NCBI GenBank assembly: GCA_951406725.2
Contig: OX597823.1
Coordinates: 102,548,001-102,612,000 of the forward strand
Reading direction: 5' to 3'
DNA length: 64,000 bases
Origin: Octopus vulgaris
Taxonomy: Eukaryota
Numbering within the stretch: position 1 is the stretch's first letter; every line of letters starts with the position of its first letter. Positions 8,690 through 60,165 of this stretch are shown here, piece after piece. A model generated the notes under the pieces. It was not told where the DNA came from, searched no databases, and was given only the letters and a program-made list of their open reading frames with translations. The position numbers and the translations under genes were made by a program.

Positions 8690-8823
8690 GGCCACGATGG
8701 GCTTCCTGGAATCTAGGCATATTTTTATGTATCCGCTGTGCGGGTATTCATCGCAACCTTGGTGTACATATATCCAAGGTGAAGTCAGTAAACTTAGATA
8801 CTTGGACTGCAGAACAACTAGCT
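8690..8823 (+). CDS. SMAP1: SMAP1/2-like ArfGAP, internal coding exon (zinc-finger half of the ArfGAP domain)
   Basis: Translates to [45 protein letters not shown] (ArfGAP CxxC..R motif). TAG acceptor at 8687-8689, GTGAGT donor at 8824; 134 nt. The first coding exon is not seen in the window. SMAP1 versus SMAP2 is not resolvable. Confidence 0.95.
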
Positions 8824-20700: not shown

Positions 20701-20830
20701 CACATGTTTCGAAAATTCCACTGATACTATTCAAAAGAATAAATGGTATAAACAATGCAATCTTCTCTTCGGGTAAGTGAAAAAAACGAAACTCATCAAT
20801 ACGACATTTTAGCAAAAAAGTAATTACGCT

Positions 20831-21544
20831 ATGAATACTAGTAAAAATATTTGGTTAATAATTCCTTACGGGAGACAAATTAAATCTAATCTCCCACTGC
20901 TGTTTCGTCAAGCTATTGCTAGGAATTTTCCAAACAATTCTAGATATTATTCTATAATTAATTCACATAAGGTTAGGATAGGTTTTTCAAACACAAAAAA
21001 TCTCTTGCAAATTATATCTTCTCATAATAGCAAACTGTTAAATATTAATACATTTACTAATACTAACATTAATTTAGCTAATACCATCCAACCCTCTAGA
21101 AATATTAATAACAAGGTTATTGTATCTGAAGGCAATTCCAGTAGAATTAAATTTATGTCAAGTAACTCTAAGATTAAAAATTCTATATACCAGTGTATAA
21201 TCACTACTCGTAATAAAGTACGATTTTACATTGGAAGCACATCGTTAGAGTTATCTAAAAGAATTTCTATCCTTCACTCAACATTTAGGGATAGAAATAA
21301 ACGGAATAGTACCGGTCTCAGCAAACTGATTTGGGATTTAAAAGACCACAATGAACAATTTCATTTAGAATGGTTGATCCTCTCAATTTCGATACCATAT
21401 GACAAAGGCAAGAAATTCTGTCTTCTCTGCAATTCTGAGCTATTTTTCATTATTTTTTCTAAAAATACTCTAGTAAACACGGTTATAGAGCGAGCATACA
21501 GATGTAAGCATTGGCAAAAACATACAATTAGTGCATATAAGTAG
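20831..21544 (+). CDS. PLE linker plus GIY-YIG endonuclease fragment (no RT)
   Basis: SIYQC...FYIGST...KRI...H...STGLSKLIWDLK...CLLCNSE...N...RCKH; stop-free for 237 codons. Confidence 0.8.
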   Translation: MNTSKNIWLIIPYGRQIKSNLPLLFRQAIARNFPNNSRYYSIINSHKVRIGFSNTKNLLQIISSHNSKLLNINTFTNTNINLANTIQPSRNINNKVIVSEGNSSRIKFMSSNSKIKNSIYQCIITTRNKVRFYIGSTSLELSKRISILHSTFRDRNKRNSTGLSKLIWDLKDHNEQFHLEWLILSISIPYDKGKKFCLLCNSELFFIIFSKNTLVNTVIERAYRCKHWQKHTISAYK

Positions 21545-26089: not shown

Positions 26090-26175
26090 ATGTTAATGGA
26101 AATGGGAAACAGTCGTGCAAGAGCTGTTTATGAAGCTAACATTCCCGATAATTTCCGAAGACCGCAGACAGATTC
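26090..26175 (+). CDS. SMAP1: SMAP1/2-like ArfGAP, next coding exon
   Basis: MLMEMGNSRARAVYEANIPDNFRRPQTD(S). Polypyrimidine tract plus CAG acceptor; phase 0 start matches the previous exon; 86 nt; followed by GTATCCTTTT. Confidence 0.95.
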
Positions 26176-26243
26176 GTATCCTTTTTTTTTTTTGTGAAAA
26201 ACACTCAGACTGAAAGCGTATTTCTCAATTTTAATTTCAATTA

Positions 26244-27428
26244 CGAGGGACGTTCAATAAGTAATGCCTCTGACCCACTTGAAATTTTGCATGTGCAATC
26301 ATTTATATCTCTATAGAGTAAGTGGCAAATTACAGCTCTGAATTAATTGTGGTTTCTGATTTACAGGTGTTTGAACCGAGTCAAGTGTGAAATGGAGCCT
26401 GTTGAGTGTCGAGCAGTGATCCGGTTTTTGTATTTGAAAGGACGCACACCACTGGAGACTTTTGATGAAATGAAAGTAACTTATGGTGATGATGCCCCAT
26501 CATATGACCTTGTAAAACGCTGGCATCGTGAATTCAAACATGGTCGGAACTCTGTGGAAACAGCTCCCAGATCTGGTCGCCCCCTTCTGTCATTGATGAG
26601 GCATCTGTCTGTCAAGTTGAGGCTGCCATTTTGGAAGATCGACGCATAATTATTTGCCAAATAGCCCATGAGGTCAAGATTAGTACTGGGTCTGTGGAAA
26701 CTATCATTCATGACCATTTGCATATGCAAAAGGTGTCTGCCAGATGGATTCCCAGGTTGCTCACGCCTTTCCAGAAGCAAGAACGCGTCGAGTGCTCGAG
26801 GGTGAATTTGGAGATGTGCCAAGAAGATGAGTCAAAATTTTTCAAAAGACTGATTACACAGGATGAAACCTGGGTCCATCACGATGATCCAGAGACCAAA
26901 GCCCAGTCAATGCAGTGGAAGCACCGTGACTCACCCCCTCCAAAGAAGGCAAGGGTGCAGCCCTCCGCTGGCAAGGTCATGCTCACAGTCTTCTGGGACC
27001 AGGACGGAGTAGTGATGACAGATTTCCTGGCAAAGGGTACCATCCTCCTCCTGCAGGACAACGCTCCGGTCCACAACTCGCTTGTCGCCAGATCAGAAGC
27101 ACAGGCATATGGTTATGAACTCCTCCCCATCCCCCCTACTTTCCTGACCTTGCACCCTCTGATTTTCACCTCTTCCCAATCATGAAGTTGTTTTTGAAAG
27201 GAAAGCGTTTCCCAGATGATGCAGCCTTGATTTCTGAAGTCACGTTGAGGTTGGAGGACAAAGCTGGGTTCTTCTACAAAAACGGTCTCCAGAGCCGCAT
27301 CAAACGATGGAAGAAATGCGTAACTCTGGGTGGTTCCTATGTAGAAAAAGACTAATAACTGTGCCAAGTTTCGTTGCTCTACTGCTATGGGAAGTGGGTC
27401 AGGGGCATTACTTATTGAACGCCCCTCG
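26244..27428 (+). mobile_element. Mariner (Tc1/mariner) transposon, defective
   Basis: 37-bp TIRs CGAGGGACGTTCAATAAGTAATGCCTCTGACCCACTT (2 mismatches between ends) with TA on both sides. Confidence 0.95.
26392..27355 (+). pseudogene. Mariner transposase pseudogene (frameshifts and internal deletion)
   Basis: MEPVECRAVIRFL...RSGRP; WIPRLL; ITQDETW; QDNAPVH; PYFPDLAPSDFHLF across frames; a segment is missing between KGT and ILLLQDNA. Confidence 0.92.
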
Positions 27429-27965
27429 TACAAACACTATTTAAAACTAAACCATCACACATATAAAACTGGTACATTCTCACAAAAGGATAAGATATTG
27501 GGCTATTGGCTGTTGCATCATGAATTTGTATACCGCTGTATGGCTATAGTTGAACCACTGTACGGCTATAGTTGAAGACACTTGTCTGAGGTGCCACACA
27601 GTGGCACTGAACCCAAAACCATGTGATTGGGGAGCTAACTTCTTAACCACACAGGCATGTGTTTGTGTATGAGTGTGTGTATACAAATATACATACTCAT
27701 ACACACACACATACATATATGTGTGTGTGTATGTGTGTATATATATATCATCATCGTTTAATTTCTGTCATCCATGTATGTATAGGTAGGATGGTTGACT
27801 GGAGCCGACCATGTCTGTTTTGGCAGAGTTTTTACAGCTGGATGCCCTTCCTAACACCAACCACTCTGCAGGATGGACTGAATGCTTTTTACGTGGTACC
27901 AGCACAGACAAGGTCAATTTTGGCATGATTTTTACAGCTGAATGCCCTGCCAAATGCCAACCACT

Positions 27966-28011
<46 letters not shown>

Positions 28012-28065
28012 ACACACACAGAAGATTTGTCAGGCCAAGTGAGATTATAGTTGTGGCCTTTTTTG

Positions 28066-28312
28066 GTGTCATGTAAATGGCACCCGTGAAATCAGTGATG
28101 GCCATTGCCAGTGCCATGTAAATAGCAGCTGTGAAATTGGAGTTGGGCCATCGCAATGGCACCCATGAATCGTAGTCATTGGCAGTGCCATGTAAATGGC
28201 ACCTGTGAATTGTTGTGGCCATGGTCAGTGCCATCTAAATGGCACCCATGAATTGTAGCAATGGTCATTGCCAGTGCCATGTAAATAGCACCTGTGAATC
28301 GTAGTCAAGGTC
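28066..28312 (+). repeat. Degenerate tandem repeat, ~6 units of 37-46 bp with a GTGCCATGTAAATGGCAC hairpin core
   Basis: Cores near 28067, 28110, 28147, 28185, 28228 and 28274; runs directly into an RTE-type tail. Confidence 0.8.
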
Positions 28313-28500
28313 ATTGCTGCCAGTGGCACATAAAAGCACCCATTACACTCCTGGAGCAGTTGGCGTTAGGAAGGGCGTCCAACTGTAGAAACCTTGCCAA
28401 GTCAGACTGGGGCCTGGTGTAGCTCTCTGGCTTATCAGCTTCAATCAAACTGTGTAACCCATGCCAGCATTGAAAGTGGACATTAAATGATGATATATAT

Positions 28501-28727
28501 ATTTCTTTACTACCCACAAGGGATATAGAAGGGACAATCAAAGACAGACAAAGGGATTGAGTCGATTATATCGACCCTAGTGCTAAACTGGTACTTAATT
28601 TATCAACCCTGAAAGGATGAAAGGCAAAATCGACCTTGGTGGAATTTGAACTTGGAACTTTACGACAGACGAAATACGGCTACGCATTTCGCCCGACATG
28701 CTAACGTTTCTGCCAGCTCGCCACCTT
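28501..28727 (-). mobile_element. tRNA-derived SINE family B
   Basis: Reverse complement of the 37463-37693 copy; flanked by duplicated TGATGATATATAT; inserted in an RTE (GAT)n tail. Confidence 0.85.
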
Positions 28728-30923
28728 TGATGATGATATATATCATTATCATCATTTAATGCATGTTCTCCATGCTGCCATTAAATAATGATATATACAC
28801 ACACACACACAGTCAGGAATTTTTGCTATTTGTATTTTCCATAGGTAGTGACACTCTTTAATTAACTGGATGTGTTTTCATTACAATATAAAAGTATATT
28901 TTGTCAGTATTCAAGTAAGTTGTTTTGGTTTTGAAGTTTGATAATTTGGGTCATATTTATAAATGCTGGATTATTTGCATACAAAAATATAATAAAAGAA
29001 GAGATAGGAGGAGCTATTCAATAAATGAAAGAAATCAATGGCCTGAAAAAATTCCATGTCATTGATCTCTTTCATTTAATTTTCAGTTACTATTGCTAAC
29101 TTTGTTTGTATTTTATAGAGAGAGGGTTATTTCTAAACTCTGTGTTCTTATATGCAACCATTTAACCACATAAGGTACACATTGACAATCAGGCTAAGTT
29201 GTGTCTGTATTATCATGCAGAATAACTGAAGTTGCTGCTTGTGGTGTAATTGGAGACTAGTGTGCACACACAAGTTTTCCTTTTTTTAAGCAAGGAATCA
29301 TTAGAGAAGATTAACAGGACAGCACAGATTAAAGCTAATGTGACAATTGGTACTTGAATTATTTTAGTGTGTGTTTTATGTTTATTGAGCATGACAGCAT
29401 GTCTGTAATGGTGATATAATATTTGTACTGGTGTGATATTAATATTTGGATGTTTGTAGTTAGTTGTACATGCAAATGTGTGTCTGTTTGGATTGGAACA
29501 TACAGTGGACAGGAGAGTGTTAACACATGTCAACTCTAAACAGTTACATGGCGTGAAATGAACAGACATAGCTCACAGATTTGTGTTTCAGTTATATTGT
29601 GTCTCTGCCTAGCAAAGGATTGGGTATTTCACATTTTAGTACTTATTTGGCATCACTGATTTGATGCCGATTTATTTGACATCAGACGTTTTAATATTTC
29701 TCTCATTTAATGATTCTCTTATTCTGTCTCTCTCTCTCTCTAGCACTCTCTTTCTTTCTCCCTATTTATGTGTGTGAGCATATTTCTCTTTTTTGTGTAT
29801 ATACCTGTGTGTCTGCTCTTAGCGCCAAAAAGTATTGCCACCAAAACAGGTTCAATGTCCAATCAGCTCTGCCAAATCGCCAGCATCCAAACATCTCAGC
29901 CTGCTATGGTTCATACTGTACCCTCTGGCATGGACATGCATTGATGTAGTGTGTAAGGGGATGTGTGATAGCCTGAACATTGTCTCTTCTGTTCAATCTA
30001 TTTCTGTATGCCTACAGATACGGGTGGGGACTTATGGAGGAATGCAAGGTGACCTCACTCAGAGTGCACTATTTGCTGTTCTGTATAGAGGGTTTCTGAA
30101 TCTGATATGCACGTTTTGAATGGTTGGAAAAATTTTAGGTTTGTAGGAGAAAAAAGACTGAGTTGAAGCTAGGCTATCATTATCCTTCATCAATTTTATT
30201 ATATTGTTTATTTATGTGATCATCATCATCATCGTTTATCGTCCGCTTTCCATTCTAGCATGGGTTGGACGATTTGACTGAGGTCTGGTGAACCAGATGG
30301 CTGCACCAGGCTCCAATCTTTATCTGGCAGAGTTTCTACAGCTGGATGCCCTTCCTAACGCCAACCACTTCAGGCGGTACTGGCAATGACCTTGCTGGAA
30401 TCTTTTTACACATGCCACCGGCACAGGTGCCAGTAAGGCGACGTTGGTAACGATCGGTTTTATTATTTCCACTAAATCTGGTGCAGTGAATGCTTTCAGT
30501 GTGTTCCCTCATCTGATATTTTTCTGATTCTTCCAAGTATAAAGCAAGGTCACCAGAATGCATTTCAAGCTTCATCTAATATGTAGATCTCACATGTGGA
30601 ACCTTGGCGCAGGTAGTGATGGTATGGAGATTTGTGTGTGTTTAGATGGAAGATTTCTGTTCCCACTGGCAAGAAAGGAGCTTTCTGTTCTTTTTGAAGA
30701 TTGTTTACATGTGAAATTGGAATGTGTAATTAATTTTACGTACATGTAAATAATTGTTTAATGAAAGGGAAAGCAGTCAATAATCAGTATGAATTTAAAT
30801 TAAATTTAATGATTTTCTTCCTATTCGATTTTTGTTTTGTCCTCAGCCTACAAACATTTATAATGAGTTACTTTAAATGATTAACTTTCATCTGATCGTT
30901 ATTATACTTTGACTAAGTTGTGG

Positions 30924-31014
30924 TGCATTGGAAGCTTTTATCAGGGCTAAATATGAACACAAGCGTTATATAGCTCGTGAGTGGGTTCAACCAAAGCCAA
31001 CAGTACCAAAGCAG
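30924..31014 (+). CDS. SMAP1: SMAP1/2-like ArfGAP, exon encoding the end of the ArfGAP domain (start is 30924 or 30918)
   Basis: (S)ALEAFIRAKYEHKRYIAREWVQPKPTVPKQ with the FIRxKY motif; CAG|GTAATT donor at 31015; frame continues the phase-2 end of the previous exon. Not in the ORF track. No further exon was recognised downstream. Confidence 0.9.
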
Positions 31015-32852
31015 GTAATTTCACCATTTTCTCTTTTTTATGCTCAGTAAATCTTCTTAAAAGAAAGATGCTTTCAAATATACTATTATTATTATTTATT
31101 CATTGAATTGGCAGTTTTAGAATTTATACCATATTTTTCAGTATGCAAGTCAATGTAATGTATAATGTAAACATGTAGCGTAAACATTCAACCATTGTCA
31201 TTGTCTTTCCAAATCCTTCTGCATTTCACATGAAATTTTTGACCCTCCAAGTTGCCCTGGTGTATAAAGTCAACTTAGCTTTTTTTGCTTGTAAATTTTG
31301 GTCTGTAACTTTTGACTTGTAAGCAGAAGAAGATGGTAAATGTGAAACGGCCGATTTGATGACATTCTACAAGTTTGTCTCTATGTTTCATGGCCATGCA
31401 TTTTATTGTGGCTTTTATGAGACAAACTTTCTATGCTTCAGCTTGGAGATATGTTGGGCATTGGCTCCAATAAATTAAGCTAAATGTCCAGATTTGTTTT
31501 TAACAACCCCGACTTATAAAAAAGACCAAATTAAAACAATATAGTTATTTGGTTTGTTAGCTCAGTGTATTTTAAGTGAAAGAAGAAAGTTGTGATGTCT
31601 CGTAAATGTAATTACTATTCAGTACAGTATTCAAAAATGTAATAGCAATCCTGGTTAGTTTGCCAGTTCTTAACAGCGAACATAGGTCTGTTGATAGCAT
31701 ACAACAGGAAGCAGGTATTAATGTCTTTCTAGCATAACACAATTGAAAAAAGAGTATTAAAAGGGAACACTATCACTGACATTTTATTCTCTGAGCATTA
31801 AAACTTCTGTTTCTTTTTATGTTTGTACTTCATTTAGTTCTTGTTTAGTAAGATGAATCCTACTAAATTTTTTCGTTGTTGTAAGCTGTGTTATATTTCT
31901 GTTTTTTTTTTTTTTTTTCCTTCATGCCTTTACCTTAAACGTGAGAGACAATATATTATACAAGCTTTGGTAGCATGATACTCCTCAATAAAATGTAACT
32001 AATGGAGCCAAACACTACAGTTTGTTTCCATGGCGTCCAAGACAAATTTCTACTACAGCTCTGATATTTAAAGTATTGTGTTTGTCACAGAACTTCATCC
32101 TAGCATTTTGTGACACCAACTTTAAAAATCTAAGCCGTTGAACTAGTTTATATGACATTTGGTCCAAACAGTTGAGATGGAGAAATTGGCCCTGTCTCAT
32201 TTTATTTCTATCATTTATTGATTACAGAATGAAAACTTTCCTAGATTAGTATTCATTCATTAAGAATCAACTATTAACTCTTTGATGAGGGTGCAATACT
32301 AAGACAGATGTTAGAAGAAATATTTTCCAATTTCTGCTTAAACAGAGTGACACTAACTTTTATCTTATTTTCTTTGAAAATGTGACTTCTTTTATTATAT
32401 TTAATTATTTATATGTAGTTTTCTCCAAATTATATCATGGTATTTCTTAAAAGAATATTTCTTTTAATTGTAGGTATTTGATGTTGTTAATGTTTCTTTT
32501 GAGATTGTATATTAATATAACAGATGTTCTTAAAAGACACATGCGCTAGGAATAGGGATATGTAAGTGGAAACCACTCTTTGGAAGCAGGAATTTTTTTA
32601 GTGATTTGAATAAAGTATTTTCATTCTGTTCTTTATAAATACACAGGTTACTGACAAATATATTTTTGAAATATTAAATTCAAATTATATGAGGGAATGT
32701 TGTTTAGAGGTTAAGGTGTTGAACAGTAACTTGTAAGATCGTGGTTTCAATTCCTAACTGAGTGGTATGTTGCATTCTTGAGGGAAACACTTCATTTCAT
32801 GTAGCAACAACAGCTGGGCTTTTTTAAACTCTGGGACAGACTTGGTGGAGAG

Positions 32853-41313: not shown

Positions 41314-43730
41314 TTGCAGGAGCACATTCCATATCTGCTGTCTCTTTAAAACCATGCAGGCCTTTAAACTAGGTGGCCATCCAATCACAAAGCATTTTGG
41401 ACACATCATCAACCATCTCTCTTACCTGAACCAAAAACAAAACATAAATGGCCACAATATTTCCATTTTGAGTGCAAACTCTTTGCTGGGTTGCCAACCA
41501 CTCTCAGTGAACCCTAAGAATTCCAAATGATCATGTACCAAGTGCATACAACCTGTTTTAACTCAAACTTTTAAAGGTACTCAAACAAACTGTATTACAG
41601 AATTATCCTATCTCTATTGCACCCCACCTAGACATCAAGTAAATTTTGACTTTTAGTATTTCCTAAATAATTTGCTGCAGCTTGGGCTTACTATCCCACT
41701 AATGCATTGTTGAGTGCTCATTCTCACTGTTCACCACTATGTATGTGTATATGCAGGGAAATGTTACCTTACTTGGAAATAGGCCAGGGTTGGTTACAGG
41801 TAGAAAATTTATCTCAACAATTTCCATCTGATGCATGAAAAAATGGCTGTTAAACTGATGAGGCTGATATCTGTATATGTCCGTTATTTGCTTGGCAATG
41901 TTTAAGCAACTCAATTCAGGACATGTTAACTCATATTTGGTACTTATATATAATCTTGGTGACTGTATGTTCTACGGAATCAAATGGCATTAATAAATAC
42001 AAATAACTTTGTCCATTTTGATTTGAACAGTCGAACAATGATGATGATGATTGATTTGATTTCTCAGAAAAGTTTTTTAAAAAATGAAAAAAAGAAAAAA
42101 TTAGCTGTTAAAGTTTTAATAGCTTTAGTAAGTTTTCCAGACCTTTAAACCAAACTAAATAATTTAGAAGCAGCCTATACATGCTAAGAACCCCACACAT
42201 GTTGATATAAAGTGTTTAGCATTTTAGTTTAAATTGACTTTCAACATTTCATCCACATACTAACGAAGGTTATCTCATTTTCATCAAGGAGCACAACGTT
42301 CTTATTTTTTTAAATGGTTTATTGAAGAATATCATCTGTCATATTGAACATGTTGGGCAATTACATGAAGAATCTGTCATTAAAAAAGAAATTAGTTGTT
42401 AGGAATATCAACTGCTGAAATGAAAGCGTAAAATTTAGAGATGTTAATTTTATATCATAGACAAATTATTGGCATTCGCATGAACATTAGCACTCGACAA
42501 GAAGTCACCTTAAATTCCATTCTCATTGATTTTCACCCCTGTTCTAAGAACATATAATTAACTGACCATATTCTGTAGTACTTTTTCTGCCAAGAGTTTG
42601 TTCAATTTCACTTAATTGCTTTTATCTTTTGAGAGAAATAAACTAGAAAGGAATTCAACTAAACGGATTTGTACTCTCTGTTCAACAGAGAGATTACCTT
42701 TGTCTTGGAATGACTAGAACAACCATCTTTAGCCATAGAATATTTGGAAATTATCTGAAGATATTTGCTTGTATTGCCACATTAAGAATTGGTATTGCTT
42801 CTTTTTTTTTTTCTTTTTCTTTACCAAGAATGAACATTGTGAATGTTTTTGTGCTTTTGGACACACTGAATTCTATCAGAGATACTGTAAACTGTTTACT
42901 ACTAATTTTGATTATTTTGTTCACTCTTACATTATTCCACTAGGTTTCATTTAGAAAAGCTTTGTCTTTGAGCCCCTAAATACGAGATGTTATGAAGTCA
43001 AATTAGACAGACAAGCCACTTCTTTTCACACTCCTCCATTGGTTTCATTGTACACTGCTCCTTTCTTTGACCTCTTTCTGTTTTCTTATTCTCTTGTTTT
43101 TATCCTAATCTTTCTCTTCTTCAGTCTGAATTTATGAAGTAATATGTATTCATTCTGGGAATATTTCTAAGGACATTTATTAACAAATTTTCTTGTAAAT
43201 CCCAACTGATTTTTGTTTCTTTTTCATACCAGTTTCCAGTTGTTTTTCTTTTCATATTTCTCTGTTCCTACGACATGTCTTAGCTTTTTCTTTCAGTGTC
43301 AGTTATTTCTCACAGTGGTGTCTTCTGAAACTATCTATCCTGTATTGTGGGTTGCATGTCTGCCTTCTTATCTTCGAGATCTTTCCTTCTCTCTTCAACA
43401 ATTGCCCAACTCTGGTTTCTGGGGGCCTGACTATTTGAATGTTTCCCTAACTTTTGACTTTCAGTCTCTCAATTTTTTTTTATTTTTTATTCACTCTTCT
43501 GTCAACATCAGGTGAAAAAAGAGGTAAGGGAGGTAAGACTGTTTACTTACTGCTGCTGCTGCTGGTTTATATAAGTTGATGTTATCCTTGTTTTCTTTCA
43601 TACTATGTTACTATATATCCTGGTTAACTGAGTATTAGTTAAAAAAAACAAAAAATAATAATAAAATGAAAGTTTCCGAATTAAATAAATCAATTTCTAA
43701 ATTCTGTAGATAAACAAAACTTATAATGTC

Positions 43731-47900: not shown

Positions 47901-50109
47901 TTTGTAATCCCTAGCCTGGCAATGCGACCAAGGAGCTATGCTGGTTTGAAATAAACACTGCAGGCTCAGAAGTGCTACCAAGCAGGACTGTCCAAGGTGC
48001 TTGCAAAGCACCTTACTGCATGCATTTGTGCAGTGTCAACCATTGCTGATTTGTGAAGTTATGTTGAACAGCTGCTATCATGTGTGGGATGGATCTATCA
48101 GCTGAACCTATTGTGAGGATTACCTCGCCACTCACCTCTAACAAGGCAGGGCAGGCCTGTTTCTCTGTGTAGTCACTATGACAAAAAAGGTTATGTGGTG
48201 GATGAAACTAAAAGGATTGAGAAAAGACATCTCCCTCTTCAGTCAAGCACAGTGAGATTGGAGAGACAAATGTGCTTTCAGTAAATTTCTAAAAAGATAG
48301 GTCACTGTGGCAAAAATGCTTAGGGTAAATGGCCCTACTCTAGACATGCACATGTAAATTGGAGAACAACAGTTGGGCGAAGATGTATCTGTGGGCTGCC
48401 TTGATCTACCCAACTTGGAGTTTCTCCTTTATCAAGGACACTGCATCATCCGTTATCACACAATTGTATACTTTGTGCACTTTTATCTCATTTCACTGTT
48501 TTTTCCCCATTTCTTTCTCCTCATCTTCTATGTGGAACCTCACAAATTGTCGACTGCCCTTGTAATGTACCCCTTCTCTATGCTCTTATAGCTAATAAAG
48601 AAAATATTATTATTAACATCAACGATGAGGAGAGCAATTTGAAGCACATGACTGAGACTGTAAAATGTAATTTTTCATACTGTATACTATTACACACCTA
48701 ACCAGGATATAATGATAACAAATTGGTGGTGGTGGTGGTGGTGGTTGATGCATGTTGTAACTTCTTACTATATCAACTGGTTATTGTCTGTACTACTGGT
48801 CAATGGTGCATGGTTCTATTCTACTCAGTGGCAAGGGCTTTTTTGTTTCTTTTTTTTTATATGTTTTTTTTTATTTTGTCCTCTGCGAAACTGGGAACCC
48901 CTACTCAATCAGTTCAGATTGATTCCACATATCATCCTATCCTATGCTGTAATATTCATTGTTAGTCAGAGGAGTGAAAAATAAGGTTCTGAAAGTTGTT
49001 AGTAATGTTTCGAATAGCCACATTACAGATTCTAGATTTCTTTAAAAAATTATTATATAATTTATAATAATAAAAAAAAAGGCCTTTTTTGAAAATAAAT
49101 TTTTTTTGTTCGAACCACTGCTGAATTTCTATTTATTTATTGTTTTCAACTTACCTAATATCTTCATTTGCTAATTCAATCCTGTCAATTTAAACTATTT
49201 GTTTAAAGCACTTAGTGTACGAAAATATTTTTGTGTTTACAAATATTGTCTATTTTATGGAAAACTATACAACATAAAATAGAGGGAAGGTTGTGGCACT
49301 TAGCAAATGTTGATGTCTTTCTGTAAGCACTCAATTTTTGTTTGTTTTTTTCATTTTTACTTTCATTATTATTATTCACACTTCCCTGTTAGACCTTTTT
49401 TGCATGAAACAATGTTTCAAATTTACCTTAAATTGCCCTTTTTTTTTTTTTAGTTATTATAATTGATCTTTTAATTTCATTTTCAATGTACCAAATGAAC
49501 TTGTTCTTTTGAATTTTGTTTCCAAGTTGGAGCAATCTTTTCAAAGATTTAAAAATAGTAAATAGTTAAATTTGACAAAAATGTTAATAAACTGCACCAA
49601 GTTTTATAACTTCAACAATTTGCATCCTTCATGTTACAATTGATTTAAATCTAATTAAATTAACATAAGGCTTTTTTTTTTGTTTATTTTTCTGTCAGTC
49701 AGAAGAATCAATCCATTTTGTATTATCCTAAAACCTTTTGTTACTATTTTGGTCAGTTCTTCATCTTAAAACGTTTACAAAATAATTTAGAAGATATCAA
49801 ATGTTTTGGTCGTCATTGGTTTTATATTAATAATTGTGCTATTCCCTTGTGAGCAGTTTTATTTAATTTCTTTCCCTTTTTTATGTTGTTGTTGATGTTT
49901 ATTTTCATTTTTTAAAACTTGACTCTATCTGAAATAAATTGTTGCTTAGCATTGTTGTAATCATCTATATAAATTGAAATAGCAGAATAGCTGAACACCA
50001 GAAACTCTGTGAGTGTGTATAATGTAGTCAATTATGTGAATAAACAAATTAAATATAACAGCTTGGATTTGATACACAAAATATTTATATATATATATAT
50101 ATATATAAA

Positions 50110-51762
50110 GGGAAAGTTTACGAAAATAAACAAAAGACAAAGGCAGGTGGAGTACAAACAAACAAATATATTAGTAGAGCACTCAGGAATAGAAAGATAC
50201 ACAGAAAAAAACAAGGAGAGAAAAAAAATGTGTGTAGGAGCTAACAATCTATCATGGCGTCCTGACTTCGGACAATGGTCAAACGCGAGAGGGATAGTAG
50301 GGGAGATAACAGGGTCAAGTGACTTCCAATACGAAGGTGCCCCCAACACAAAGGTGCGTGTGATCTGGACGTGTGTGTGTGGGTGGTGTGTTGTGATGTG
50401 ATGTGTAATGTTGTATGGTGTGGTGTTGTGGGGAGGTGGGGGAGGCGAGAGTGGGGAAAGCACAGGTGGGGTGTGGGTAGATAGAGGGTGGGGAAGGGGT
50501 GGGAAGGTGGAGTAGGGGTGAAAAGATGTAGGAGTGAAGAGAAGTAGGAGGAGGGGAGGAGGTTAGATGAAAAGAGGGGAGAGTTGAGCCCAAATGGCGT
50601 AAAAGAGCGAAGAGAGAAGATTAATCCCTGTTCACAGCGCAAGCGGGAATCCGGATGGCCTCTGTCCAAGGACAATCCGAACACAGACAGGTGTTGCAAG
50701 GAGTGACCGGGGGAGCAGAAATGGCGTGAGACTGGAGTGTCATTGGCGAGGCGGATGTCTTGGAGGTGTTCTGTGAACCGGTCAGTCAAGCGGCGTCCCG
50801 TTTGTCCGATGTACAGGGAATGGCAGAGAGAGCAGGAGATGCAATAGATGATATTGCTGGAGGTGCAGGTGAAGGAGTTGATGATGCAATAGGGTCGATG
50901 ATGGGTGCCAGTGAGGAGGGTGGTGTTGGAGAGGTAAGGGCAAGTGCAGCAGGGGAATGAGCCAGGTTGGGAGGTAGGGTTGGGGAAGAAGCTGTGGACC
51001 AAGATGTCTCGTAGGTTATGGGCTCATTTGAAGGAGAGGAGAGGTTGGTTAGGGAAGAGGTGTGAAGTGGAGAGGTCAGACTGGAGATGCCGGAAAGCTC
51101 GAAGAATGGTGTGTTGGAGAGGTACAGTGGTGGGGTGGTAAGTGAGGGGAAAAGGGAGGCGGGAGACTGCAGGGCAGGTTCGAGGAAGAGAGCAGATGCA
51201 CGGTCTACGGAACGTGCTCTGGCAAGGGCGGTGTGGATAGTGGTGAGGGGATATCCACGTAGGATGAAGTGGCAAGCCATGAGTTGAGACTGAGTCTCAA
51301 AGTCATGGTTGTCACTACAGAGCCTACATAGATGGAGGAATTGGGAATAGGGGATGGAAAGCTTGGTGTGTTTGGGGTGGGAGGAAGAGAAGTTTAGGTA
51401 TGAGTGTGAGTCTGTGTGTTTGTAGTGAATGGAGGTGGTAAGAGTGGAGTAATGAATGCTGACCAAAATATCAAGAAAGGAGACAGAGGTGTTGGAGATA
51501 GTGCAGGAGAAGTGGAGGGCAAGATGGAAGGATTTAACAAAAGAGAGGAAGGAGTCTAGATGTTCGCGGGAGAGTGAGGTGGCACTGATACAGACATCAA
51601 TATAACGACCGTATAGTTCAGGAGTGGGACCAGTGAAACTAGAGAATATTTGGGCCGCAACATAGCCAACGAACAGGTTTGCATAGTTGGGGCCCATTCT
51701 CGTTCCCACGGCCACTCCTGAGTTTTGTTGGTAGAACTCACCCACGAACGAGAGACAGCAAA
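50110..51762 (-). mobile_element. Penelope-like retroelement, 5'-truncated and frameshifted (RT C-half plus GIY-YIG)
   Basis: FYQQNSGVAVGTRMGPNYANLFV; GRYIDV (YIDD site mutated); VSFLDI; HYKHTDSHSYLNFSSSHP; then CTSSNIIYCISCSLCHSLYIGQTGRRLTDRFTEH. Confidence 0.92.
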
Positions 51763-51772
51763 GACTCAAGAT

Positions 51773-52018
51773 TTTCAGACAAATATTTAAGTGTGAATAT
51801 ATAGATATTTCTGTCAATAGATCGAATTACACAGAATACAAATAACAGAGATTTAAAGGGGAAGAGGTAAGGTGTTATAAGTCCCCTAGAAACAGCTGTT
51901 GGACTTATAACAGCTTACCTCTTCCCCTTTAATTCTCTTTGTCATTTATACTCTGTGTAAATTTGATCTAGTGATATAAATATCTATATGCTTATACTTA
52001 AATATTCATCATCTGAAA
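51773..52018. repeat. Imperfect ~110-bp-arm fold-back abutting the PLE 5' truncation
   Basis: ...TAAAGGGGAAGAGGTAAGGTGTTATAAGTCC-(CCTAGAAACAGCTGTT)-GGACTTATAACAGCTTACCTCTTCCCCTTTA... Confidence 0.8.
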
Positions 52019-52361
52019 GTCTTTGCTTTCTTTCTGTTTGCATGTATATATATATATTGGATATCAAACCCAAGCTGTTATATTTAATTTGTTTATCCAC
52101 ATAATTGCCCCCATATCTACTTGCTTTGAATCCTCTTATAGCCACTTTTTTACTCTGTGGAATTGGTCCTTCATAAAGACATCAGAGCCTAAGTTCGAAT
52201 CATTTGAGCATTACTGAGTGTTTTCTATACCGTGAATCCCTGGACCTCATCTGTTGACTATCTATATAATGTAGTCATTGATTATGACCAATCAGAATGT
52301 TAACATTAGTATCACGTCTATTTTTGTTCTTAGCAACACAGGTGACTTGTCAGTTCTGCTG

Positions 52362-53964
<1,603 letters not shown>

Positions 53965-56597
53965 CATACCTGACAACATTTTAATGATGGGAGATTTCAA
54001 CCTTCCCGGGGTTGACTGGTCTACAAACAGTCTGCCGCCAGGTTCTTCTCTCTCAACCCCTGACAGGGAGGCAGTGGAATCGCTTCTTGACTTCATGGAT
54101 GACTTCTTCTTGTCCCAACTGGTACTCGAACCAACGAGATGTCACAAAAACGTCTTAGACTTAATTTTCAGCAATCACACTGATACTATCCACAATATTG
54201 CAGTGGAGAAAACCCTACTCTCCGACCATGACATGGTTCTCTGTGATCTGAGATTTCACTGGCCAAAATGCAAAACAAATGTCATCCCTCCTGTTCATCC
54301 ATTTGACACTATGGATTTCCACAATGCAAACTGGGAAGCGATCAATAATGATCTTGCACAAGTCGATTGGTCCTTCGCGCACACATACACACCCACTAAC
54401 ATCAAAAAGTCCTGGCAGTCACTTGTAGACACCATCACGAACATATGTGCAAGACACACCCCATTAAGATCTGCAAACAAATCTAAGTGTCGAATCCCTA
54501 GAAATAGAAAATCTCTCATAAGGAAAATTAAAAGAATCAACAAAAAGATCAACATGCTGAAATACTGTCAACAGCAACACACCAACCTGACTGCCATCTC
54601 GTCGCTAGAGATTAAAAAACATAAACTCCAAAACAACATGATGTCTATCATCAATAGTCAGCGAAGAGCTGAAGAGGCCTGGGCCATTGAGAAGATCAAA
54701 CTCAATCCCAAAGTGTTCTTTTCATTTGCAAAAAAACACAGAGTCACTGGTTCTACTGTTGGCCCTCTGATTGATGAAAATGGTATTCTTCAAGACAATG
54801 CCAAAACCATGGGAGAAATATTGCAGAAACAATATTGCTCTGTTTTCAGCAATCCTGATATGACTGATCTGGGCTGTATCAGTGATGTTACTCCCCAATA
54901 CACTTTATCGGACATAACATTTGGCGCTCCTGATGTCTTAGCAGCAATAAAGGAAATGAAGCATAATTCAGCAGTAGGTCCCGATAGGTTCCCTGCTTGT
55001 GTCTTGAAGATGTGTCAAAACCAACTTGCACCCCCTCTAGCCAATCTGTGGCGGAACTCATTGGATGCTGGATATATACCAGAAGACCTTCTATCCCAGT
55101 CTGTTGTCCCAGTTTTCAAAAAAGGAAACAAATCGCTTGCCGTGAATTACCGTCCAATCTCACTCACCTCTCATATCATCAAGGTATTTGAGAGGGTGCT
55201 GAGATCGCGTATGACTCACTTCCTTGAGAGTCATAATATGCTGAACCCCAACCAGCATGGATTCCGTAATGGGAGAGATTGCCTGACGCAGCTACTGCAT
55301 CATTTTGATGACATTTTGAGAGCCTTGGGAGAGGGTTCCAACACTGATGTCATCTACCTTGATTTCAGCAAGGCCTTTGACAGGGTTGATCATAAGATCC
55401 TTCTGAGAAAGCTGTCCAATATTGGTGTCACTGGAAAGCTGCTGCAATGGATCAAGTGCTTCCTCTCTAACAGAACCCAACATGTTGTAGTCGAAGGAGT
55501 CAAATCCAGCCCAGCCAAAGTCAGCAGTGGTGTCCCACAAGGCACTGTGTTGGGCCCACTTCTCTTCATCATCTACATAAATGATATTACTGACACCATC
55601 AAACACAGCAACATCAGAACCTTCGCTGATGATTCCAAGCTCCAGAAGGTCATCAATGGCGTGGATGACCGAATAAACCTTCAGTCAGACCTACTAGCTG
55701 TTGTCCAATGGGCGGAAAAGAATAACATGTTGCTAAATGAAGACAAATTCGAACTGATCCACTTTGGAAGGGAGGACGCTCTGAAACTCCCATACTCTCT
55801 TCCTTCTGGAGAAATTCTCATGGCATCCAACAACATCAGAGACCTGGGAGTAACAGTGGACAACAACATAAGCTGGGCTACACATATAAGCAGCAAAGTT
55901 GACATGGCCCGCAGAATGTGTTCCTGGATTCTCAGAACCTTCCAGTCGAGAGATTCCCACGCTATTATCCTTCTCTTCTCCACTTTTGCCCGACCCCACC
56001 TTGAATACTGCTGTCCACTGTGGTCTCCCTACACAAAACAAAATATTATGAGAATTGAAGCTCCCCAAAGGTCAATCACAAAAAAGATAGATGGCATGTC
56101 AGACCTTGACTACTGGGGTAGACTAGAGAAGCTGAAATTGTATTCACTCCAACGACGCCGTGAACGCTACATTATCTGTATGATGTGGAAAATATTCCAT
56201 CAGCACTGTCCGAATGATGTTGGCATCACCTTCAAAATGCATCCAAGGCTTGGACCACGTGCCATCCGTCCACAACAAAAATCTAAATCGCATCACATAA
56301 CGACAATACGGCACAACTATTTCACCTCAATTGGACCCGCTCTCTTCAACATTACACCAGGACACGTCAAAAAAGAAACTGACCACACAAAATTCAAGAA
56401 GTCTTTGGACAAATTCCTTCAAACAGTACCGGACAAACCATCCACACCCGGATATGTCTCCGCAAACAATAACTCTCTGCTCGAATGGGCCTTGGTGCCC
56501 AAATCCTGAACTGAAAGACTTCGCCAGGTGGTGCTATTAAGTTAGACATGGCCTGGGCCAATACTGGCCAAAAACCTTTCTAAGTTATTCTAAGTTA
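53965..56597 (+). mobile_element. CR1-like LINE, 5'-truncated, ORF2 uninterrupted to the stop at 56509
   Basis: APE C-terminus (MGDFNLP, LDLIF, SDH); RT ([38 protein letters not shown]); [11 protein letters not shown]; short 3' UTR ending (TTCTAAGTTA)x2. Confidence 0.93.
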
Positions 56598-58021: not shown

Positions 58022-60165
58022 TAGCCATATGCTACAAATGTGTCCCAGAGAGAAAGGCCACTGTACACAAGAACAAAATACCCAGAGAGAGGAAAATTTT
58101 AATGAGACGGCGTACAAAAATTTGAAATCGCCTAAACAAACAAATTGAAAGCAGTGAAAAGTCCCGCCTGAAAATAAAACTGTTGGAAATTGAAAATTGT
58201 CTGCAACTCTCCCATGAGAAGGAAAGAGCAGACAAAGAAGCCTGGGCTATAGACAACATAAAAACTAACCCCAGAGCTTTCTACAGGTATGCCAAAGAAA
58301 CAGCTACGGTGCACTGTAGGGCCACTCCTTGAAAAGGATGGCACACTCACAGGAAAACCAATGAGGGTAAGTGAAATACTGAATGAACAATTCAAGAGTG
58401 TTTTCGCTCCACCCCTTGGGCATTTCCAAATCAGCAATCCAACTGACTTCTTTACCACTGCAGATATAGAATCAGAGGCGGCGACGATAAATTACATTGA
58501 TATAAAGGAAGACGATGTAATAAAGGCTATAGATGAAATGAAAACAGACTCAGCTATTGGCCCCGATGGATTCCCGGCAATCCTCCTAAAAGTATGTAAG
58601 AGAGTCCTAGCAAGACCACTGCAGTTCCTCTTTCAGAGCTTCCTTGCAGCTGGCAAACTTCCAAGAAAACTGAAGGAAGGTAAAATATGCCCTATTCATA
58701 AAGGAGGTAGCAGAGCGGAGGCCAAGAACTACAGACCTATCTCTCTGACCTCACACATCAGCAAGGTCATTGAAGAAAATGACTTGCTGCCTGACACCCA
58801 ACATGGTTTCCAACCAGGAAGAAGCTGCTTAACTCAGCTCCTGCAGCACTATGACTGGGTGCTGAAACAACTGCTCAACCACTCAAATGTGGAAGTCATG
58901 TATCTCGACTTCGCAAAGGCCTTCGATAAAGTCGATCATGGAATGATATGTCACAAACTGCGTGATCTTGGCATAGTTGGAAAACTAGGAGAATGGCTTC
59001 ATGACTTTCTGAAGAATAGAAGTCAGGTGGTAGCAGCCAATGGGGCTACTTCCATTAGCACGCAAATAGTGAGCGGTGTTCCACAGGGCACTGTTTTAGG
59101 ACCACTACTGTTCATAATGGCCCTCTCAGACATGCCCTCAGCCACGCAGAGAGCCACGATCACAAGTTATGCAGATGATACAAAAGTTTCACAGGCAATA
59201 CAGAACCCTGAAGACACTAAGCACCTGCAATGTGAGCTGGACGAAATATACAAGTGGGCTGAAAAGAATAGCATGCAGTTCAATGCTGAAAAGTTTCAAG
59301 CTTTATACTATCAGCATGCAAAACTGAATGAAATACCCAATGAATACACTGGACCCGGAGGGATTGCAATCCCAGAGGCACAATCAGTGCGTGACCTGGG
59401 TATTCACATGAGTGATGACGCGACCTTTCATGTACATGTTGCTAAACTGACAATGAAATGTAGACGGCTGGCTGGATGGATTCTTAGAACCTTTAGAACA
59501 AGAGAACAAGAAACCATGATGGTCCTCTGGAAGACACTTGTCCTAAGCCACTTTGACTATTGCTCTCAGCTATGGTCACCATCCAGTGTCAAGTTGATCA
59601 CAGAACTTGAAGCGATCCAACGAAGCTACACGAAGAAGATAGCCTCTGTGCAGCATATGAGCTACTGGGAGAGACTCAAGAGATTAAAGCTCTATTCCCT
59701 GGAGTGTAGGCGAGAAAGATATGCCATAATATATATCTGGAAGATCCTGGAAGGTCTTGTCCCAGACTTTGGCATCGAGAGTCACAAAAATGCCAGAACC
59801 GGACGCCACTGCGTAGTACCAAGGACTCCAAATTTGCCATCAAGATGTAGGACAAGATATTGTGATAGCCTGGGCTTCAGAGGCCCACGGCTCTTTAATA
59901 TCCTCCCGAAGAACCTGAGAGACCTGCATGGTGTAGATGCGGATGTCTTTAAAGTAGGACTGGATCTCTTCCTGTCAGGTGTCCCGGATGAACCAACTTC
60001 ACGGCAGGAGGGGCAGATGAGGGCAGCTGCATCGAACTCTCTCATGCATCAGATGGCGTTTGCTAAAAAGTATCCGTGAGGTAAAACCGTGTAGCAAACC
60101 AAATGGCGGTGCCCCAGCATGGCCACAGCTCATTAGCTGAAACTGGAAAAACAAAATCAAAATCA
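58022..60165 (+). mobile_element. Second CR1-like LINE family, 5'-truncated, defective RT ORF (58289-60079)
   Basis: [46 protein letters not shown]. Frameshift near 58290 and a short deletion after HISKVI relative to the neighbouring LINE. Confidence 0.92.

Follow-up and report, generated by a model that had tools for sequence, protein, structure and literature searches.

Our analysis of a 64,000-nucleotide (nt) stretch of Octopus vulgaris DNA (assembly GCA_951406725.2, contig OX597823.1, positions 102,548,001 to 102,612,000 of the forward strand; hereafter the window, with positions counted from its first letter) indicates that the SMAP gene contains a U12-type, or minor, intron that ends in GG instead of AG. 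With a probability that we put at about 0.92, it is the ancient minor intron of SMAP genes, here with GT-GG ends, cut at its 3' side by distance from the branch site while a nearer AG is passed over. A first-pass annotation, made from the letters of the window, had proposed a U12-type intron in SMAP with a probable GT-GG boundary. The first part of this proposal is borne out by the match of the exons to SMAP, by the position of the vertebrate minor intron and by a set of invertebrate loci, and the second by assembled RNA contigs that join position 26175 to 30924 and not to 30918.

RNA contigs join the SMAP exons at GG

Four of 24 sequencing runs were compared with positions 30700-31250 of the window, all as assembled contigs, with their pieces and loose ends as listed. 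As the three RNA-type runs (X13, X20 and X8) were compared on this segment only, a splice join shows in them as loose ends. X13 (organism A, study P8, guessed to be RNA, depth 391) and X20 (an RNA library, study P11, depth 29) each provide a contig that lies on 30924-31014. In both, the loose end before 30924 equals window positions 26146-26175, the end of the upstream exon, and 26175 is therefore joined to 30924; the loose ends behind 31014 continue into the next SMAP exon. The junction can slide by 0 nt to the left and 0 nt to the right, so the ends of the intron are GT and GG, and sliding was rejected as an explanation of the GG end. The piece from X8 (organism A, study P5, a third study, depth 3.8) also begins at 30924. 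No piece or loose end at 30918 is among those listed for the three RNA-type runs, in which rare forms would be lost in the contigs. RNA contigs are likewise absent from 30700-30923, which says nothing on intron retention.

Some further features of these runs concern the intron downstream. The X8 contig is 2,505 nt long; on the reference it begins at 30924 and extends into the following intron, which is of the major (U2) type, and X13 has an intronic contig in 31015-31250 at depth 2.3. If the other 542 letters of the X8 contig are spliced 5' exons, either splicing takes out the minor intron first and the major intron downstream of it later, or a 3' end lies in intronic sequence. In seven RNA-type runs of organism A, 0.33-0.58 of the sampled words are present, above what is expected from the exon alone.

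GG in genomic DNA

In the DNA run X16, from organism D, the acceptor is covered by one contig (30700-31216), which departs from the window at 26 of 517 positions and has 41 gap letters. All its changes of G are listed (ten to A, one to C and one to T), and none falls at 30917, 30922 or 30923; eleven non-G changes are not itemised, so A, C or T changes in the branch site are possible, and the two listed nearby are C30897T and A30904G. The GG is thus present in two genomes, and its conservation in a contig of DNA from a related organism is evidence against an error of assembly. With one contig over the acceptor, a second gene copy in organism D was rejected. X20, spliced at 30924, has a silent exon variant (G31011A) in common with organism D, which weakly suggests the GG join in the lineage of organism D too.

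We regard it as very improbable that G30922 is an assembly error or a private allele, with the spliced RNA coming from chromosomes that have an ordinary TAG. Position 30922 has no DNA run of organism A, the best DNA runs share 0.96 and not 1.00 of the sampled words, and contigs collapse heterozygous sites, all of which would suit such an error; yet neither the X16 contig nor the splicing of X20, with its organism D variant, agrees with it. Furthermore, the public O. vulgaris model P0007, discussed below, encodes Gly at this place, for which its assembly needs GG, although that assembly is possibly the source of the window itself and so maybe not independent. The two outcomes that the first-pass annotation had named as fatal to its proposal, all junction reads at 30918 or an A at 30922, did not occur, given the joins at 30924 and the organism D DNA without a G change.

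A minor intron shared with other animals

The exon ends in TC directly before the donor (TC/GTATCCTTTT, GT at 26176-26177), and a re-reading of the sequence recovers the positions of the first-pass annotation for the branch-like A (30912), the AG (30916-30917) and the GG (30922-30923), as well as their distances from that A of 5 nt for AG and 11 nt for GG. The intron has the features of the U12 class: RTATCCTT at the exon border, a branch-site match at about 10-15 nt from the 3' end (its A at 11 nt) and no distinct polypyrimidine tract, the pyrimidine share before GG being 0.56 versus 0.72-0.89 at three U2 acceptors of SMAP. The classification counts consensus matches and uses no position weight matrix score. 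The donor motif alone is not beyond chance, since the two strands of the window together have 6 copies of RTATCCTT, versus 7.5 expected; the U12 call rests on the SMAP exon end, on the phase of the vertebrate minor introns and on the RNA join.

Olthof et al. (2019, PMC6717393) give SMAP1 (TCA/GTATCCTTT) and SMAP2 (CCC/GTATCTTTT) as human and mouse genes with minor introns. Judging from three exonic bases and the protein alignment, the octopus intron would occupy the same codon (after the Asp of RPQxD) and the same phase (2) as the minor introns of both genes. The octopus and vertebrate introns are alike in gene family, codon and phase, SMAP1 having the U12 donor GTATCCTTT. By contrast, the octopus branch site (TACTTTGAC) is weaker than those of vertebrate SMAP1 and SMAP2 (TTCCTTAAG and ATCCTTAAT), and the octopus intron ends in GG, whereas the vertebrate SMAP rows compared contain no 3' dinucleotides.

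A pattern scan of metagenome contigs returned 41 loci, comprising 8 duplicates, 9 without an intron at this place, 1 that was too short and 23 with an intron. The orthologous intron ends in AG in all 23. Ten of them have a U12-like branch site, with distances from its A to the intron end of 9 nt (one locus), 11 nt (five), 12 nt (three) and 13 nt (one); the donor is GTATCC in seven of the ten and was not found in the other three. Three loci show CTTTGAC followed by 11 nt, as in the window, so that the octopus spacing is common to orthologues ending in AG. Two loci (L022 and L024) also have an AG 5 nt past the branch A; it is presumably passed over as well, because its use would shift the frame by 7 nt.

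The other 13 loci comprise ten short introns with GTATGT donors, one with GTAAGT (L007) and two with variant branch sites (L005 and L013). The GTATGT group (L002, L003, L008, L010, L014, L015, L018, L021, L030 and L038) has introns of 48-67 nt. L007 has a 313-nt intron that keeps an 8/9 match to the U12 branch site 22 nt from its end, and L037, with the same upstream peptide as L007, keeps a full U12 intron. From their letters, these eleven GTATGT and GTAAGT loci look like conversions to the U2 type. The branch site of L005 and L013 (TCCTTATC) was missed by the branch rule, and the donor of L013 is GTATCCTT; both introns are probably U12-type too.

Such conversions bear on a further alternative, in which the join is correct but carried out by the major spliceosome or through another branch site. 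The imperfect branch site speaks for it, and so does the U2-like aspect of the orthologous intron in other lineages, from which it follows that conversion happens at this site. However, the octopus donor is the full U12 consensus, the pyrimidine share is far from that of the U2 acceptors of the gene, and the converted loci end in AG without exception (11/11). U2-type acceptors depend strongly on AG. We consider this alternative highly unlikely.

Protein spacing and the skipped AG

Both acceptors keep the reading frame open over the two exons, with 59 codons in the GG form and 61 in the AG form, which inserts Cys-Gly, as the first-pass annotation had read. That annotation had also named the GG-form spacing as the one of SMAP homologues, and among 120 homologues (55 without the downstream motif, mostly fragments or read-through models, 3 not measurable by the pattern and 62 counted) this spacing occurs in 59 of the 62 measured. 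The remaining three have two extra residues: P0007 (O. vulgaris, DSCGALEA) and the Saccostrea models P0058 and P0060 (DSKSSLEA). P0009 and P0020 (O. sinensis), P0011 (O. bimaculoides) and P0024 (Argonauta) contain the complete GG-form peptide, and aligning the AG form with human SMAP1 (2crr) and SMAP2 (2iqj) leaves a gap of two residues.

P0007 raises the possibility that the canonical AG is the true main acceptor and that octopus SMAP has the Cys-Gly insertion. It contains exactly the 61-residue AG-form peptide, and GT-AG accounts for 74% of conserved animal minor introns (Larue & Roy 2023, PMC10639083). Nevertheless, two contigs with readable letters join at 30924 and a third starts there, and neither the two human structures nor 59 of the 62 measured homologues have the insertion. 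Moreover, annotation restricted to canonical ends often mis-maps non-canonical U12 introns (Sheth et al. 2006, PMC1557818). We hold AG as main acceptor to be extremely unlikely; P0007 is probably mis-annotated, a product of canonical-only annotation, and we flag this probable error in the public O. vulgaris SMAP model. Other models are irregular at the same junction. The Elysia chlorotica model reads through the U12 donor (DSYPFF) and the E. marginata model drops residues there (P0025, P0073); together with the oyster models, they show that the SMAP minor intron is often mis-modelled.

A different possibility adds to the GG acceptor instead of replacing it, namely that AG 30916-30917 is used as a tandem acceptor, in over ~5% of the transcripts of some tissue, so that a Cys-Gly isoform results. 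In its favor, the AG form keeps the frame and occurs in P0007, the Saccostrea models with two more residues stand beside a normal form (P0057) at the same junction, a minor form would be hidden by contigs, and U12 3' site choice has been described as error-prone (Turunen et al. 2013, PMC3584512). On the other side, the pieces and loose ends listed for the three RNA-type runs include nothing at 30918, the insertion is missing in the models listed for O. sinensis, O. bimaculoides and Argonauta, and 5 nt is far under both the 11-13 nt optimum (Turunen et al. 2013) and the 9-13 nt of the orthologues. We consider this addition unlikely.

Heavy A-to-I (adenosine-to-inosine) editing is known in cephalopods. 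A more speculative version, in our opinion quite improbable, would have GG and AG as a regulated tandem acceptor that produces a minor Cys-Gly SMAP isoform in octopods, with a ratio that depends on the tissue or on A-to-I editing of the AAG (30915-30917). If this were true, the isoform would have an altered loop ahead of the final ArfGAP helix, and the oyster models with Lys-Ser would suggest that a two-residue switch recurs at this minor intron in molluscs.

How the cut may be placed

In the mechanism that we favor, distance-set cutting of the ancient minor intron at GG, the minor spliceosome would bind the GTATCCTT donor and the CTTTGAC branch site, with A30912 as the predicted branch point. 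The 3' cut would then be placed about 11 nt past this A, with little need for an A at position -2; cutting after G30923 would yield the standard SMAP sequence, and the AG at 30916-30917, only 5 nt from the branch A, would be too close to be reached. This distance agrees with the optimum of 11-13 nt from branch site to 3' end that has been given for U12 introns, which have no pyrimidine tract (Turunen et al. 2013). The second-to-last base of the intron is G in the octopod lineage and A in the other animals compared. Probably, the ancestral intron ended in AG and its A at -2 changed to G, which was tolerated because distance from the branch site would set the cut. Lin et al. (2010, PMC2831892) note strong conservation of the A at -2.

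Several observations weigh against this interpretation. The branch site is imperfect (7/9), and a second candidate with a 6/9 match lies further upstream, 33 nt before the AG. The 61-residue peptide of P0007 carries precisely the Cys-Gly that AG splicing would insert, and P0058 and P0060 have a different two-residue insertion (Lys-Ser) at the junction. The RNA evidence consists of one contig per run, so that proportions and rare joins are invisible; furthermore, the RNA type of X13 and X8 is only guessed, and X8 contributes its start position and not loose letters. The genomic status of GG is supported by the DNA contig of organism D, while position 30922 has no DNA read of organism A. Finally, nine of the ten loci with U12-like branch sites are of one peptide type, probably close kin and not ten independent tests.

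The intron would be a natural case in which a GG at 11 nt beats an in-frame AG at 5 nt, in a conserved gene and apparently in at least two octopod taxa. This makes it usable as a ready-made reporter for U12 3' site choice.

Other GT-GG introns

Both GT-GG minor introns and the distance rule are already in print. Five GT-GG U12 introns have been counted in human and three in mouse, among them that of ARAF in both species and that of SLC12A7, which is GT-GG in human and GT-AG in mouse (Sheth et al. 2006, tables 2-3). In a larger data set that includes O. sinensis, 159 GT-GG introns make up 0.216% of conserved animal minor introns (Larue & Roy 2023, Table S1), and the octopus SMAP intron may already be among them. 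As far as described in these sources, the introns resemble the octopus one in their U12 donor and branch site, in a one-base change at -2, in having orthologues that end in AG and in being mis-mapped by canonical-only annotation. The octopus SMAP intron differs in belonging to a mollusc gene and in skipping a canonical in-frame AG that lies 6 nt upstream. In BANP, a GG acceptor derived from an ancestral AG is kept across species (Parada et al. 2014, PMC4176328), and in SMAP, where the derivation from AG would be the same, GG is also kept across species; however, the GG of BANP is an alternative site, not called U12-type in the text compared, whereas that of octopus is the form found in the contigs. 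We found no paper on an octopus or SMAP GT-GG intron, although subscription papers, online databases and supplements beyond those searched could still contain one; the word SMAP is absent from the text searched of Sheth et al. 2006, Parada et al. 2014 and Lin et al. 2010 and from one supplement.

Gene structure and neighboring elements

The window contains three SMAP exons (Table 1) that are identical to Octopus SMAP proteins in tblastn searches, and those beside the minor intron match human SMAP1 and SMAP2. Membership in the SMAP subfamily is further supported by the Pfam ArfGap domain, by the best Protein Data Bank matches, which are the two human structures cited above, and by the exon at 8692-8823, which as a protein query has 100% identity to cephalopod SMAP proteins (best 120 of 3,475 matches). 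The minor-intron junction lies at residue 113, within the ArfGap domain (19-130). De novo exon scans detected no SMAP exon beyond 31014 within the window and tblastn added only a micro-exon at 43512; exon 1 and the 3' exons are therefore outside the window. The X13 and X20 contigs skip the micro-exon, as seen in their loose ends behind 31014.

Table 1. Features of the SMAP locus in the window (positions counted from its first letter).
Feature	Position	Strand	Basis
U12-type intron, 4,748 nt, GT-GG	26176..30923	+	RNA contig join; junction without slide
U12-type 5' splice site GTATCCTTTT	26176..26185	+	Sequence; motif and codon phase as in human/mouse SMAP1/SMAP2 minor introns and 7 invertebrate loci
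U12 branch-site match TACTTTGAC, 7/9 to TTCCTTRAC, predicted branch A at 30912	30905..30913	+	Consensus match count; CTTTGAC with 11-nt spacing also in orthologous loci L025, L029, L031
In-frame AG, 5 nt past predicted branch A, unused in contigs compared, used by public model P0007	30916..30917	+	Sequence; RNA contigs
GG 3' splice site, 11 nt past predicted branch A	30922..30923	+	First position of X13, X20 and X8 pieces is 30924; X16 without change of G
Coding exon of SMAP with zinc-finger half of ArfGAP (residues 40-84 of Octopus SMAP), AG/GT borders of ordinary type	8690..8823	+	tblastn, residues 40-84 identical; borders read in sequence
86-nt SMAP coding exon 5' of minor intron, residues 85-113, phase 2 at its end (within Ser codon)	26090..26175	+	tblastn; RNA contigs X13 and X20 carry its last 30 nt as loose end before 30924
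SMAP coding exon 3' of minor intron, 91 nt, end of ArfGAP domain, then ordinary GTAATT donor	30924..31014	+	tblastn; RNA contigs
Alternative SMAP micro-exon with two donors at a distance of 9 nt, giving 12 nt (VKKE) or 21 nt (VKKEVRE)	43512..43532	+	tblastn; isoform models P0020, P0009, P0011
Degenerate mariner-type DNA transposon within intron, 39-nt inverted ends, TA at both ends	26242..27430	+	Inverted repeat I3; Pfam Transposase_1, E 3e-15

The mariner element starts 66 nt past the U12 donor, and its transposase is in pieces over several frames. A role of this element in the splice signals was rejected, and we regard it as a passenger. Long frames that by eye resemble retroelement remnants also lie within SMAP introns, at 50241-51826 on the minus strand and at 20813-21544, 54067-56139 and 58464-59231 on the plus strand; two of them were compared with Pfam and had no match there. 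The stretch 52001-54000 has a GC (guanine plus cytosine) content of 0.118 and adjoins the strongly G-skewed 50001-52000; it probably consists of simple repeats.

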